Assembly: GCA_963777605.1 (NCBI GenBank)
Contig: CAVZRV010000029.1
Coordinates: 64,001-128,000 of the forward strand
Direction of reading: 5' to 3'
Origin: an uncultured Acidobacteriota bacterium
GTDB taxonomy: Bacteria; Acidobacteriota; UBA6911; RPQK01; JAPXNP01
Length of the DNA stretch: 64,000 nt
A program made the position numbers and the translations under genes. Below the pieces are notes generated by a model. That model made no database searches. It saw only the letters and a list, made by a program, of their open reading frames with translations, and was not told the origin of the DNA. Shown here one piece after another: positions 55,610 through 60,053 of the stretch (positions are counted from its first letter, which is position 1; every line of letters begins with the position of its first letter).

Positions 55610-56952
55610 TAAACGACTCCAATCCTTTCCAGCAAAGAGGTTCCGTAACGGCCATCCACAAACTCGGGGCTGTCGATGATCTTTCGGTGGAGAGGAATGG
55701 TAGTGTCGATGCCCTCAACGATAAACAGGTCGAGCGCCCTTCGCATCCGGGCGAGGGCTTCTGTTCGGTCCGCCCCATAAGCGATCAATTTGGCAATCAG
55801 GGAATCGTAATGGCTCGATACGATCCAATCCTGATAGGCGGTTGAATCAACCCGGACTCCAGGGCCGCCCGGTGGGTTGTACGCGGTGATCTTCCCCGGG
55901 GAGGGTCTGAAATTGGCGGGATTTTCAGCGTTGATCCGGCACTCGATGGCGTGGCCCTGGAACTTGATTTCGTCCTGGGTAAAGCTCAGCGGTTGTCCGG
56001 CGGCGATCTTGATTTGCTCTTTTACGATGTCAACGCCGGTGACCATCTCTGTAATCGGATGCTCGACCTGGATCCGGGTGTTCATCTCGATGAAAAAGAA
56101 GTCACCCGACTCGTCGAAGAGGAACTCCACTGTGCCTGCGCTCTGATAGCCGATCGCACGCATTGCCTCGACGACCCGCGATCCGAGGTCGGCACGAATT
56201 TCCGGGGTCACTACCGGGCTCGGAGTCTCTTCGATCAACTTCTGATGGCGGCGTTGAACCGAGCACTCCCGCTCTCCCAGGTGCACGACGTGCCCGTGCT
56301 CGTCACCCAGGACCTGGAATTCGATGTGTCTGGGATTAACCAGGTAGCGTTCGATGTACACGGCTGATGAGCCGAACGCACTCAACGACTCCGACTGAGC
56401 GGTGTCGAGCGCATCCTGGAGGTCAGCCGGCTTCCGAACGATTCGCATCCCGCGCCCACCTCCGCCTGCCGCTGCCTTGATGATGAGCGGGAAGCCAATC
56501 CCGGCGGCGATGTCATCGAGTCGCGCGGAGGCATCGTCGTCGAGGAGGTTGGAACCGGGAATGATCGGCAGGCCCGCCTCGAGGACCATCTGTCTCGCCT
56601 TCGCCTTGTCGCCCATCGTCTCGATGGCTTCGGGTGTCGGGCCAATGAACTTGATCCCGCAGGTTTCGCAGACTTCCGAGAAGTACGCGCTTTCCGCGAG
56701 GTAGCCATAGCCGGGGTGAATGGCATCGACGTTGGTGATCTCGGCCGCGCTGATAATGCTCGGGATGTTCAAGTAGCTCTCGTAGCTCTTGGCGGGACCG
56801 ATACAGATCGCTTCGTCGGCAAAGCGGACGTGCAGGCTGTGGCGGTCGGCATCCGAATAAACGGCTACCGTGCTGATTCCCAACTCCTTACACGCACAGA
56901 TGATTCTCAGTGCGATCTCGCCGCGGTTTGCGATCAGGACTTTCTTGAACAT
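55609..56952 (-). CDS. accC: Acetyl-CoA carboxylase, biotin carboxylase subunit
   Basis: [43 protein letters not shown]. Confidence 0.96.
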
Positions 56953-56958
56953 GGTGCG

Positions 56959-57429
56959 TCACGCCGACTTTGAAAGACGAATCTTGAACAATGGTTCGCC
57001 ATATTCTACCGGCTGGCCGTTTTCAACCAGGATAGTGACGATCTCACCGGAAGCGTCGCTTTCGATCTGATTGAAGATCTTCATTGCCTCGATAATGCAC
57101 ACAACTGAGTTCTTGGTTACGTAGTCTCCAACCTGGACGAACGGCTCGGCGTCCGGTTTCGGGGTCAGGTAGAAGGTGCCGACAATTGGGGCCTTGAAAA
57201 CGTACAGGTCCTCTTCTGGTTCCTTGGCAGGAGCGGCTGGTTGGGTTCCAGCAGCCTGGGGTGCACCCGCAGGAACAGCTGGCGAGGCGGTCACCTCGGA
57301 CCCTGCCGAAAGGTGGGCGGGTTTAGAGTTCCGGATCCTGAGCCGGACTCCTGCTTTTTCCATCTCGAACTCCTCGATTCCAGAGTCTTGAATCAGTCCG
57401 AGCAGTTCTTTGATTTCCTTTATATCCAT
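56959..57429 (-). CDS. accB: Biotin carboxyl carrier protein
   Basis: MDIKEIKEL, APIVGTFY, EAMK; AAGGAG RBS before ATG 57429. Confidence 0.95.
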   Translation of the reverse strand: MDIKEIKELLGLIQDSGIEEFEMEKAGVRLRIRNSKPAHLSAGSEVTASPAVPAGAPQAAGTQPAAPAKEPEEDLYVFKAPIVGTFYLTPKPDAEPFVQVGDYVTKNSVVCIIEAMKIFNQIESDASGEIVTILVENGQPVEYGEPLFKIRLSKSA

Positions 57430-57524
57430 TGGCTCTCCTTGGAAAACCCGGGAAACGTAAGGGCACATTGTCGTTAGTCGGGCAAGTTTAGTCAAGAGTG
57501 GAAGGGTTGTCGGAGCCCGGGCTG

Positions 57525-58645
57525 GCCCCTGAAGGGGGCTGACCTGAAACTTCAATCGAGATGAGTTCCTGGTTCCTGGTTTCTCGTTTCTGGAGGGAAA
57601 GTAATCCAGGCATCCCTGCCTGATATGGCGGCCGGGCAGCTTGCCCGGCGGAAGTGAACCTTCTCAATCCAGGGTTCTTGATTTCCGGGTTCTTCTGAAA
57701 TCGTCCGCCACCGGGACTGAATCGCACTTTCAGTGCTGCATTGCCGTCTTGGCTCCGATTCCCGGGGCGTTGCCGCCGGGCTGGAAATGACCCTGCGCCG
57801 TTGGCGCGCTCATCTGGCGATGCTTCACCCGTTTCACTGATTGAATGGTCCGGCGCCGCCGGGGGCGGGGCTGACCTGAGACTTCAATTGGGATGAGTTG
57901 AAGAACCTGGACGAATTGGATGCGTCTGGACGGAGATTGAGGCGATCGGTGGAGAGCCAGGGACGTGATTATCGGCTGGATCCTGGTTCCTGGTCCGGTG
58001 CCGGACGTGGATGAGTGATGATCACGGGATCGGCGCCGGGCGGGCCCCTGAAGGGGGCCTGTTTCCAGCCCAGGCATTTGCCTGGGTTCACGGTCCACCC
58101 ATCAAGAATCCAGCCCTGAAAGGGCGGCACAGCTTCTCCGGACGTGAAGAATCGGCGCGACCTTACAGGCCGCGATCGCCTTGCCGGGACCACAGACCCA
58201 GGGCAAGCCCTGGTCTGAAACCAAGGCGCCTTCCAGCGCCAGGTCGAGTTTCACTCTCTGAATGATCCGCGGAGGGCGCGGGGGCGGGGCTGACCTGAAA
58301 CTTCAATTTGGAAGAACTGGATGATTTCGACGCGTCTGGAAGGAGATTCGGGCGATCGGTGGGACTCAGAAGCCGTGGCTCTCGGCTGGATCCTGGATAC
58401 CCCGATTTCAGAACGCGAGTGAAAGCGAGCGCGGCTCCGGACGATGGTGAGTCACCAGAAGTGCTGCCGGAGGCCGGAACCGCGGGATGGAGTCAAGATC
58501 CAGGACTGGTAATGGATGAGAGTCGGGAGTAGCGCTCGCTTTCACTCGCGTTCTGAACACCGGCCGCGTGCCAGGTCCGGTCTGACAGGCCCAGTTTCAC
58601 TTTGCGAATGGTCCGGTGGCGCCGGGAGGGGGCTGATCTGAGACG
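57525..58645. repeat. Modular tandem repeat array: three modules with conserved junctions and different palindromic cargo
   Basis: GGGGCTGAYCTGARAC at 57535, 57867, 58286 and 58629; GTTTCACT at 57831, 58248 and 58594; modules 2 and 3 share a leader. Confidence 0.85.
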
Positions 58646-58676
58646 TTCCCTCCGTTGAGCGGGAAGTGGCCGCGGA

Positions 58677-59141
58677 TCAGATGAATTTCACCTCGGTGGT
58701 GATGTCGATTGCCCTGTGGATTGAACGGTAAATGGGGCAGTGATCCTGGTGAACTGCATGCACTCGTTCGACTACCTCCACCTGGTCGGAAGCTCCCTTC
58801 AGGTGGTAGGTCACGTGAATCCGTCTGACAACCAGGACCCCTTTCTCGGTTTCAACTTCGCCGGTTGTCTCCGAGACCAGTTTTCCACCGCTTGCGTCAA
58901 TATTGCGCGCTTCCAGCGCGCCCCCGAAGGTACCGGTCAGTCAGCCGGCCGCCGCGGCAACCAGGTAATCGATGGTCGTCGCGTTGGCAGGGAATTCGGC
59001 TGGGTTAACTCCGTAGTGCCGGGCGATGGCCCCGTGAACGCCGAAGCGGACGGCTTCCGGCTCTCCGGGTAGGTAAGCGAGGCGCAGCGGACCTCGTAAA
59101 CGTTCAATGCGGACTTTCGACACGTAAGTCACTTCGGACAT
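58677..59141 (-). CDS. OsmC-like protein with in-frame TGA at the catalytic position (probable selenoprotein, 154 aa)
   Basis: DYLVAAAAG-TGA(58943-58941)-LTGTFGGALEAR...HCPIYRSI...TTEVKFI, stop at 58679-58677; AAAGGAG RBS; downstream hairpin. Confidence 0.82.
58905..58921 (-). promoter_or_regulatory. Candidate bacterial SECIS hairpin
   Basis: GCGCGCU-GGA-AGCGCGC at +20 to +36 after the UGA; the loop starts with G at +27. Confidence 0.55.
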
Positions 59142-59199
59142 GCGAGTTGCTCCTTTGGGATCCTTGGCTGTGACGCGTTGGTTCCCAGTCTATGCCTCA

Positions 59200-59434
59200 G
59201 AACCAGAAGCTTCCACCTGGACCACTCCCTCGGGTTCGGAATCCCAGCCGCCTCCGGGCCTAATCCTCATGTTCTCCAGGTCGCCGAGCGAGGCCCGTAG
59301 CGGACCATTACCCGGACATCGTCACGACCTCGTTGAATTCTCTGAGCTTCTTCCCCGTAGAAGGCCTGGCGGACCTGCCGGGCCAGGTTGAGCTGGGAGA
59401 GGCTCAGGGCCTCGGCTTCCGGCTTGAGCTTGAG
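59200..59434 (-). pseudogene. Degraded internal fragment of an AcrB-family RND permease
   Basis: LKPEAEAL.LS...LARQVRQAFYGEEAQRIQRGRDDVRVMVRY, then after a frameshift SLGDLENMRIR; no flanking gene parts. Confidence 0.7.
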
Positions 59435-59531
59435 TGCAAAACAAAACTGCTGGATCTTCTTTGAACCCTTACGCAAGCTGGTATAGCCTTTCTTTCAGGT
59501 CTTTACTTCAGAGTCACGGGAGGGTGTTGGG

Positions 59532-60053
59532 ATGAAGAAAGCTTTGATTCTCGTTTGCGTTTGTGGGTTTGGTCTGCTCTTGGGACAGGGAAATCAGCGT
59601 GGGACTGCAGGCGTGGTTTTGGGTGATGCCAAGGTCGAGATCGAGTACGGTCGTCCTCTCCTCAATGGACGGGACTGGTCCGGAGTGGAACTCGGGACGG
59701 TTTGGCGCCTTGGTGCCAACAATGCAACAACGTTAACCACGGACCGGAACCTGACCATCGACGGTGTCGCCGTCCCGCCAGGGACGTACGCGCTTCTCGC
59801 GAAGAAGGTTGGGTCCGACGCGTGGGAACTGGTCGTCAGCAAGGACGTGAATGTCGCCGGGAACCAGCGTGACCCCGATCTCGACCTGGGCTCGGTACCA
59901 TTGACGAGCAGTCGACTGAACCAGTCGGTTGAGCAGTTGACCATCAGATTTCGGAAGACCGGCCAGGAAACGGCTACGATGTACGTCGAGTGGGGCGACT
60001 CGGCTTTGGCGGCTCACATCATAGCGGTTTCGGGTCTTCCCGAAGGTTCGTAG
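59532..60053 (+). CDS. DUF2911-like exported protein
   Basis: Signal peptide; IEYGRP...VWRLGAN.AT...PGTYAL...VEQLTI...EW. Confidence 0.78.
   Translation: MKKALILVCVCGFGLLLGQGNQRGTAGVVLGDAKVEIEYGRPLLNGRDWSGVELGTVWRLGANNATTLTTDRNLTIDGVAVPPGTYALLAKKVGSDAWELVVSKDVNVAGNQRDPDLDLGSVPLTSSRLNQSVEQLTIRFRKTGQETATMYVEWGDSALAAHIIAVSGLPEGS

Follow-up and report, generated by a model that had tools for sequence, protein, structure and literature searches.

The window analysed here, a 64,000-nucleotide (nt) stretch of a contig from an uncultured Acidobacteriota bacterium, holds on its reverse strand, at 58677..59141, an OsmC-like reading frame with an in-frame TGA. Judged from its sequence and from that of its relatives, it is very probably a genuine selenoprotein gene. 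With the internal TGA read as selenocysteine (Sec, U), the locus would be one intact gene for a 154-residue redox enzyme of the OsmC/Ohr fold, in which the first active-site cysteine (Cys) is replaced by Sec. The locus comprises the following features:

58677..59141, reverse strand: complete, very probable selenoprotein gene for an OsmC-fold protein; 154 codons plus the terminal TGA stop at 58679-58677, translated with TGA as U.
59150..59155, reverse strand: Shine-Dalgarno sequence AAGGAG, 8 nt 5' of the ATG at 59141-59139, read from the sequence.
58941..58943, reverse strand: in-frame TGA, predicted Sec67, at the peroxidatic-Cys position of the OsmC fold; assigned from the TGA/Cys column in relatives and from the alignment with 1ukk.
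58905..58921, reverse strand: hairpin resembling a selenocysteine insertion sequence (SECIS), with a 7-bp stem GCGCGCU/AGCGCGC and a GGA loop, +20..+36 after the TGA; it encodes G-A-L-E-A-R in helix alpha1.
58737..58739, reverse strand: TGC, Cys135 in H-C-P-I-Y, at the resolving-Cys position; assigned from Cys conservation and from the alignments with 1ukk and 2bjo.

ORF calling (ORF, open reading frame) ends a 66-residue ORF (58941-59141, reverse strand) at TGA 58943-58941, as the original prediction had described, all of whose coordinates proved right. Past this TGA the frame stays open for the 87 further codons that had been proposed as a read-through extension, up to a second TGA at 58679-58677. 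The product of 154 residues, translated with TGA as U, reads ...TTIDYLVAAAAG-U-LTGTFGGALEAR... and then ...HQDHCPIYRSI..., with the expected Cys in HCPIY; the residues before Sec67 read ...DYLVAAAAG-U-LTGTFGGALEAR. Homologues, both database proteins and translated relatives, begin at the same residue as the ATG at 59141-59139. Standard gene callers had been suspected of truncating such a gene, and they do: besides the 66-residue ORF at the locus itself, the named NCBI records P0115, P0119 and P0120 are 'OsmC family protein' fragments of ~90 residues that run from M-T-G-T-F-G-G. Since these fragments start just after the TGA, public annotation truncates the gene. The corrected annotation turns a 66-residue orphan ORF and adjoining non-coding DNA into what would be a complete antioxidant-type enzyme with selenium in its active site. 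The same annotation error recurs in hundreds of genomes.

The residue at the TGA column was followed in a close-relative set of 41 genomes and a phylum set of 301 genomes, both including the host genome (G000), as well as in a species-level genome collection, in which 586 stretches encode a relative and the column was counted in the best 80 of them. Matches were found in 14 of the 41 close-relative genomes (G000 included), each with one in-frame TGA, and all 13 relatives spanning the column read G-U-LTGT. The 87 codons after the TGA are open in relatives and conserved at 30-69% identity. Across the phylum, 56 of the 301 genomes (G000 included) had a match. Down to 30% identity, 55 places were found at E <= 6.8e-14, and 54 of these carry one TGA; the exceptional 55th covers residues 1-64 only, before the column, in a frameshifted copy. 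The homologue in one genome of the phylum (G092:C9:404251-404714) gives two matches that overlap (residues 1-64 and 62-151) but lie in different frames, and it is probably a frameshifted copy. TGA is absent from ten weaker places (E 4.6e-8 to 6.9e-4), of which nine are stop-free and one has a TAG. Other OsmC paralogues make up nine of the ten (26-32% identity), the tenth (45%) being a fragment at a contig end.

Among the best 80 loci of the species-level collection, 79 have TGA and one has TGT, encoding Cys (L045, from a metagenome-assembled genome (MAG) of Pyrinomonadaceae). Within the Acidobacteriota these 80 loci belong to Pyrinomonadaceae, Bryobacterales, Acidiferrales, Terriglobia and Thermoanaerobaculia, and beyond that phylum to Acidimicrobiia, Thermoleophilia, Myxococcales, Desulfobacterales, KSB1, Nitrospirota, Chloroflexi, Gemmatimonadota, Verrucomicrobiia, Poribacteria and Calditrichaceae. 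Metagenome contigs were searched with a flavobacterial Cys form as the query, sought as a source of Cys-form DNA. This search returned 53 loci, with TGA in all 52 that span the column and not one Cys-form locus among them; the remaining locus covers residues 1-63 only.

At the protein level, 86 full-length database proteins have W (50), C (29, one of them the query as stored), G (3), L (2), S (1) or R (1) at this column. With the query set aside, 28 of the other 85 full-length database proteins are hence Cys forms, some of them from isolates named Tenacibaculum and Pontimicrobium. Because the loci show identical contexts (AG-U-MMGT and the like), W and G in the database would most simply be TGA read with translation tables 4 and 25. 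Four further proteins (P0049, P0056, P0063 and P0065) carry Leu, Leu, Ser and Arg, respectively, at the Sec column, each one base from TGA (TTA, TCA, CGA/AGA), and three of the four retain G-A-L-E-A-R. The check that had been proposed on this column, namely whether homologues have Cys or TGA there, came out in favour of the original prediction, with TGA or Cys in the homologues.

Two other readings of the TGA have to be weighed against these data. It could have arisen by nonsense mutation, or through faulty assembly, in what is otherwise an ordinary Cys-OsmC gene, from which a 66-residue fragment or nothing at all would be made. ORF calling does stop there, TGA is the commonest true stop in the window (it ends 30 of the 55 ORFs of >= 250 residues), and a frameshifted copy does exist in G092. 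Yet the same TGA stands at the same column in 79/80 and 52/52 independent loci from many phyla, so it is no sequencing error, and the misread TGC or TGT that the original prediction had named as a case against itself is excluded. Moreover, the downstream codons are open and conserved, C135, R107 and G94 are invariant, and a hairpin with frozen synonymous sites (see below) would be unexpected for a pseudogene. A broken gene is accordingly most improbable and, as far as sequence can refute it, already refuted.

The second reading holds that the TGA is translated as a standard amino acid (Trp by table 4 or Gly by table 25) or passed by general stop read-through, as the database calls with W (50) or G (3) at the column might suggest. 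We consider this the remotest of all explanations. TGA ends more than half of the long window ORFs and also the OsmC-like gene itself, and so is not reassigned in this genome. Homologues with a sense codon have Cys (TGT in L045; the 28 Cys proteins) rather than Trp or Gly; the W and G forms keep GALEAR in 52 of 53 cases, as expected of TGA; and the genome holds a full Sec apparatus.

That apparatus was found by profile searches of the host genome (6.73 Mb, 53 contigs, 96.7% complete, 5.7% contamination). The genes selA (528 bits), selB (354.4 bits, located on the window's own contig) and selD (362.8 bits) as well as tRNA-Sec (70.5 bits; identified by ARAGORN as SeC, anticodon TCA) all score over their curated cut-offs. 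A search for selA, selB, selC and selD had been put forward as a check on the original prediction, and all four are present. Besides, the selD gene (L001:1420-2508, reverse strand, corresponding to G000:C7) has an in-frame TGA of its own, in ...KCAG-U-ASK..., and would encode a Sec-containing SelD as the second selenoprotein of this genome.

The 7-bp GC-rich hairpin with a GGA loop that had been noted at +20 to +36 after the TGA (GCGCGCU-GGA-AGCGCGC, window 58921-58905) is real and conserved. Folded alone (23 nt), it reaches -12.6 kcal/mol (z = -3.08), an energy that 1 of 200 shuffles matched; on a single sequence, this signal is only weakly beyond chance. It is the comparative support, through conservation of both the TGA and the pairing, that makes the hairpin more than chance. 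RNAalifold, applied to 93 sequences (TGA plus 57 nt), returned exactly one consensus element, of 7 pairs in columns 23-29/33-39. Over 91 distinct sequences, 98.7% of the hairpin cells are paired, which none of 500 shuffles reached, and sliding the 3' arm by 1-3 columns drops the pairing to 20-71%. With the genome set and the metagenome loci combined into 126 distinct sequences, all seven pairs are intact in 113, and changes on both sides occur at three pairs (23/39, G-C to A-U, n=2; 26/36, C-G to U-A, n=3; 27/35, G-C to A-U, n=10). Several of the pair changes join an Ala-to-Val replacement on one arm with a synonymous GCG-to-GCA change on the other. The loop is GGA in 121 of these sequences, GGC in 3 and GGG in 2, its first two positions always being G.

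Codon usage points in the same direction. Synonymous sites in the stem are frozen (Ala+8 is GCG in 86/88, Leu+9 is CTG in 91/91 and Ala+11 is GCG in 85/90), while outside the stem the Ala codons at -3, -2 and +16 and the Leu codon at +21 use all synonyms, with an entropy of 1.6-1.9 bits. For the divergent Cys forms the corresponding control is at the protein level only: 49 of the 50 W forms have G-A-L-E-A-R, compared with 6 of the 28 Cys forms, among which 16 other variants occur. Such decay fits an RNA constraint that would lapse once Sec is lost.

Like known bacterial SECIS elements (E. coli fdhF, the bSECISearch model), the hairpin lies within the coding sequence shortly 3' of the UGA and has a small, G-containing apical loop. 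It differs from them in its 3-nt GGA loop and in a fully paired 7-bp G+C stem that lacks a bulged U, and a search of Rfam over 56800-59600 gave no family match at E <= 1. We call it SECIS-like and regard binding by SelB as putative. At this locus one set of bases cleanly serves both an RNA recoding signal and a protein helix; the selenoprotein mechanism as known is left unchanged by it.

On the protein side, PF02566 (OsmC) covers residues 57-150, across the TGA (E 1.7e-13, 51.2 bits vs a gathering score of 27.5), leaving the N-terminal 56 residues uncovered. Searched as a single protein against PDB sequences, the product retrieved just 2opl_A (E 0.54), and the family profile retrieved 2onf (E 0.0045) and three more entries at E 0.14-0.2. 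As sequence alone does not place the family, a fold search was needed. With 86 homologues as input, AlphaFold2 produced a single-domain model with a predicted local distance difference test (pLDDT) score of 96.0 and a predicted template modelling (pTM) score of 0.88. Its top Foldseek matches in the PDB are all OsmC/Ohr proteins, with 63 matches at E <= 0.001. The best is 2onf_A (E 3.0e-8, template modelling (TM) scores 0.76/0.83), and Ohr 1usp_A (E 5.5e-7), OsmC 1ukk_A (E 8.5e-7) and 1qwi_A (E 5e-6) are among the others. Pfam, AlphaFold2 and Foldseek hence agree with the OsmC-like fold that had been proposed for the read-through product.

The profile alignment sets ...AAAAG-C/U-LTG... over ...AAHAG-C-FS... 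of the T. thermophilus OsmC 1ukk, and ...C-P-V-Y-R-S-L over ...C-P-V-S-R-A-L, so that Cys135 corresponds to the GCPV Cys; it is also aligned with the FCPY Cys of OhrB 2bjo. From the 1ukk alignment, the TGA takes the place of the first (peroxidatic) Cys, where the original prediction had put it, and Cys135 that of the second (resolving) Cys. Cys135 is Cys in 86/86 aligned database homologues and in 100% of the 126 translated loci. Across these full-length translated loci U67, C135, R20, D58, H36, Y6, Y43, Y59, R79 and R107 are invariant, as is G94. The family accordingly keeps an Arg in its N-terminal strands, together with an acidic residue that precedes Sec67 by nine positions, both invariant; we take this arrangement to be the active-site layout of OsmC/Ohr. 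By this analogy, R20 and D58 probably play the roles of the OsmC/Ohr active-site Arg and Glu. Compared with the OsmC of E. coli and T. thermophilus and the Ohr of Xylella and Bacillus, the product is alike in its fold, in its two redox positions and, probably, in the layout of the Arg and the acidic residue. It differs in having Sec for the peroxidatic Cys, Asp for Glu and invariant residues of its own (Y6, H36, Y43 and Y59), and its identity to solved structures is 11-18%.

The TGA/Cys column, Cys135, the hairpin and the Sec machinery together support the proposal of a Sec/Cys redox enzyme. In such a scheme, once the ribosome arrives at UGA67, SelB loaded with Sec-tRNA(Sec) would bind the hairpin, and Sec would be inserted by the standard bacterial pathway. 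By homology with OsmC/Ohr, the selenolate of Sec67 would then attack a hydroperoxide (organic or H2O2) and become a selenenic acid, which Cys135 would resolve into an intramolecular selenenylsulfide. This bond could finally be reduced by a thiol reductant, e.g. thioredoxin or a lipoylated protein. We infer the actual insertion of Sec, the peroxidase chemistry and the reductant from these parallels, and the protein is presumably dimeric. A hydroperoxide is, by analogy, the somewhat favoured substrate.

Several points weigh against this interpretation. Placed in its 71-nt context, the hairpin region has a total fold energy no better than that of shuffles (z = -0.08). Covariation is thin because the stem is so conserved: in the genome set two pairs show changes on both sides, in 4/637 cells, and two of the seven pairs never vary. 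As the stem encodes conserved residues of the catalytic helix, protein constraint contributes to its conservation. The TGT form L045 (L045:3199-3258) still has an intact hairpin, which suggests a recent switch from Sec to Cys with the SECIS left behind as a fossil. With regard to function, sequence similarity to characterised OsmC/Ohr proteins is weak (PDB profile E 0.0045-0.2), and the curated peroxidase models TIGR03562 (OsmC proper; 13.7 vs 85.8 bits) and TIGR03563 (SACOL1771 peroxiredoxin; 22.9 vs 166.15 bits) remain far below their cut-offs. Given this weak similarity, it is solely the fold and the active-site positions that argue for a peroxidase. The closeness of Sec67 and Cys135 in space, which we infer, is a further weak point. 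Lastly, a search of sequencing runs listed four DNA metagenome runs, with 5-9% of the sampled words, and no RNA run.

The low scores with both curated peroxidase models also leave room for an OsmC-fold selenoprotein with another redox role, be it thiol-disulfide or selenenylsulfide exchange, action on some other small electrophile, or sulfur or selenium transfer. The closest folds (2onf, 1lql and 2d7v) are structural-genomics proteins of unknown function, the family's own invariant Y6, H36, Y43 and Y59 lie outside the OsmC core, as the N-terminal 56 residues lie outside the Pfam match, and 13-17 of 80 related loci have, upstream and in the same orientation, a redoxin-like gene with a W-U-PYC motif, whose product could be a redox partner. 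Still, the two redox residues, the N-terminal Arg and the acidic residue at -9 appear to be arranged as in OsmC/Ohr. To our knowledge, every characterised member of the OsmC fold with both Cys is a hydroperoxide reductase, which counts against a role of this kind. We regard it as rather unlikely and prefer the hydroperoxide-reducing selenoenzyme, through which an uncultured soil Acidobacteriota member may be using selenium in oxidative-stress defence.

OsmC-like selenoproteins as a kind are already known, as the original prediction had stated. Publications on them go back to the Sargasso Sea survey (Zhang, Fomenko and Gladyshev 2005; PMC1088965), which gives an 'OsmC-like protein' family of three sequences (PF02566/COG1765) with the motif UxxT. 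In later sources, the family comprises 5 Sec against 161 Cys homologues in the Global Ocean Sampling (GOS) data (PMC2398784), appears in the Olavius paper (PMC1976440) and is still included in reviews of 2022 and 2026 (PMC9312934, PMC13188914). A representative of this published family, given in the deep-Sep paper supplement (PMC12013277), reads F-U-L-L-T, and G-C-F-A at the second Cys. The original prediction needs one refinement, in that the present gene is not of that published and curated subfamily.

Like our gene, the published family has a UGA in frame within the first active-site helix and a further Cys close to the C-terminus; it too has Cys homologues and a hairpin after the UGA. The motifs differ: in place of the published UxxT, the sequences studied here have U-[LM]-x-G-T (U-L-T-G-T in this protein), with Gly at +3 in 98% of the 126 sequences. 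Compared by eye with the representative, G-U-L-T-G-T and H-C-P-I-Y stand here against F-U-L-L-T and G-C-F-A. The published family is marine, with few Sec and many Cys members, whereas the subfamily described here is mostly Sec and mostly from soil-type MAGs. The curated model NF041052, 'OsmC-related (seleno)protein', which probably models the published family, gives our product 14.8 bits where its cut-off is 95, and among 86 family members the best reaches only E 3.3e-7. None of the 301 genomes of the phylum has a hit over that cut-off. The host genome itself holds one sub-threshold Cys paralogue elsewhere (43.4 bits), unrelated to the OsmC-like gene. A literature search, with subscription papers and bioRxiv supplements outside its reach, found no description of an OsmC subfamily with U-[LM]-x-G-T. 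By its sequence, the gene is kin in its predicted working to the known OsmC-like selenoproteins and belongs to a separate, mostly-Sec subfamily outside the curated NF041052. What is new is a member of a subfamily that curated models miss and that public records truncate or read as Trp.

A wider proposal, on which we are evenly divided, is that this OsmC subfamily occurs in soil and sediment bacteria from at least ten phyla, has Sec as its usual and perhaps ancestral state and no curated model, and carries its hairpin in catalytic-helix codons such that the hairpin dictates G-A-L-E-A-R, a motif that decays with each switch to Cys. In a quick tree computed from the 86 database proteins after deletion of the Sec column, several Cys clades fall on long branches among Sec forms, and by parsimony the Cys forms need at least seven changes. 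The well-supported branches of the same tree force only two Cys changes. Being unrooted and weakly supported, the tree leaves the Sec-to-Cys direction undecided.

With respect to gene neighbourhood, many Bryobacterales-type loci (the 13-17 of 80 mentioned above) have a gene for a secreted redoxin-like protein of ~380 residues directly upstream on the same strand. This neighbour has an in-frame TGA in ...RSADW-U-PYC... (UxxC), for example at L078:1779-2933, forward strand, with the TGA at 2019-2021. Together with the OsmC-like gene, it would make two selenoprotein genes in tandem; the window is without such a neighbour. Here, the gene is flanked by accB/accC on one side and by genes for a DUF2911 protein and a Gfo/Idh/MocA oxidoreductase on the other, and inspection of the flanking genes found no conserved operon partner within this window. 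The AccC of the genome is most similar to proteins named Acidobacteriota, with identities of 82% or less. A promoter and terminator scan of 58300-59600 found none. An upstream ORF (59267-59476, reverse strand), taken by eye for the remnant of a resistance-nodulation-division (RND) transporter, was dropped, as Pfam gave no match. Between accB and the OsmC-like gene lies a 1.1-kb gap (57528-58632) without a long ORF. It contains three copies of a composite repeat at ~410-nt spacing (families D1-D4, 65-87% identity), for which no Rfam family match was found. Just downstream of the selenoprotein gene, this non-coding gap also holds an inverted repeat (58407-58442 / 58522-58557) whose 36-nt arms are 92% complementary, with 79 nt between them.

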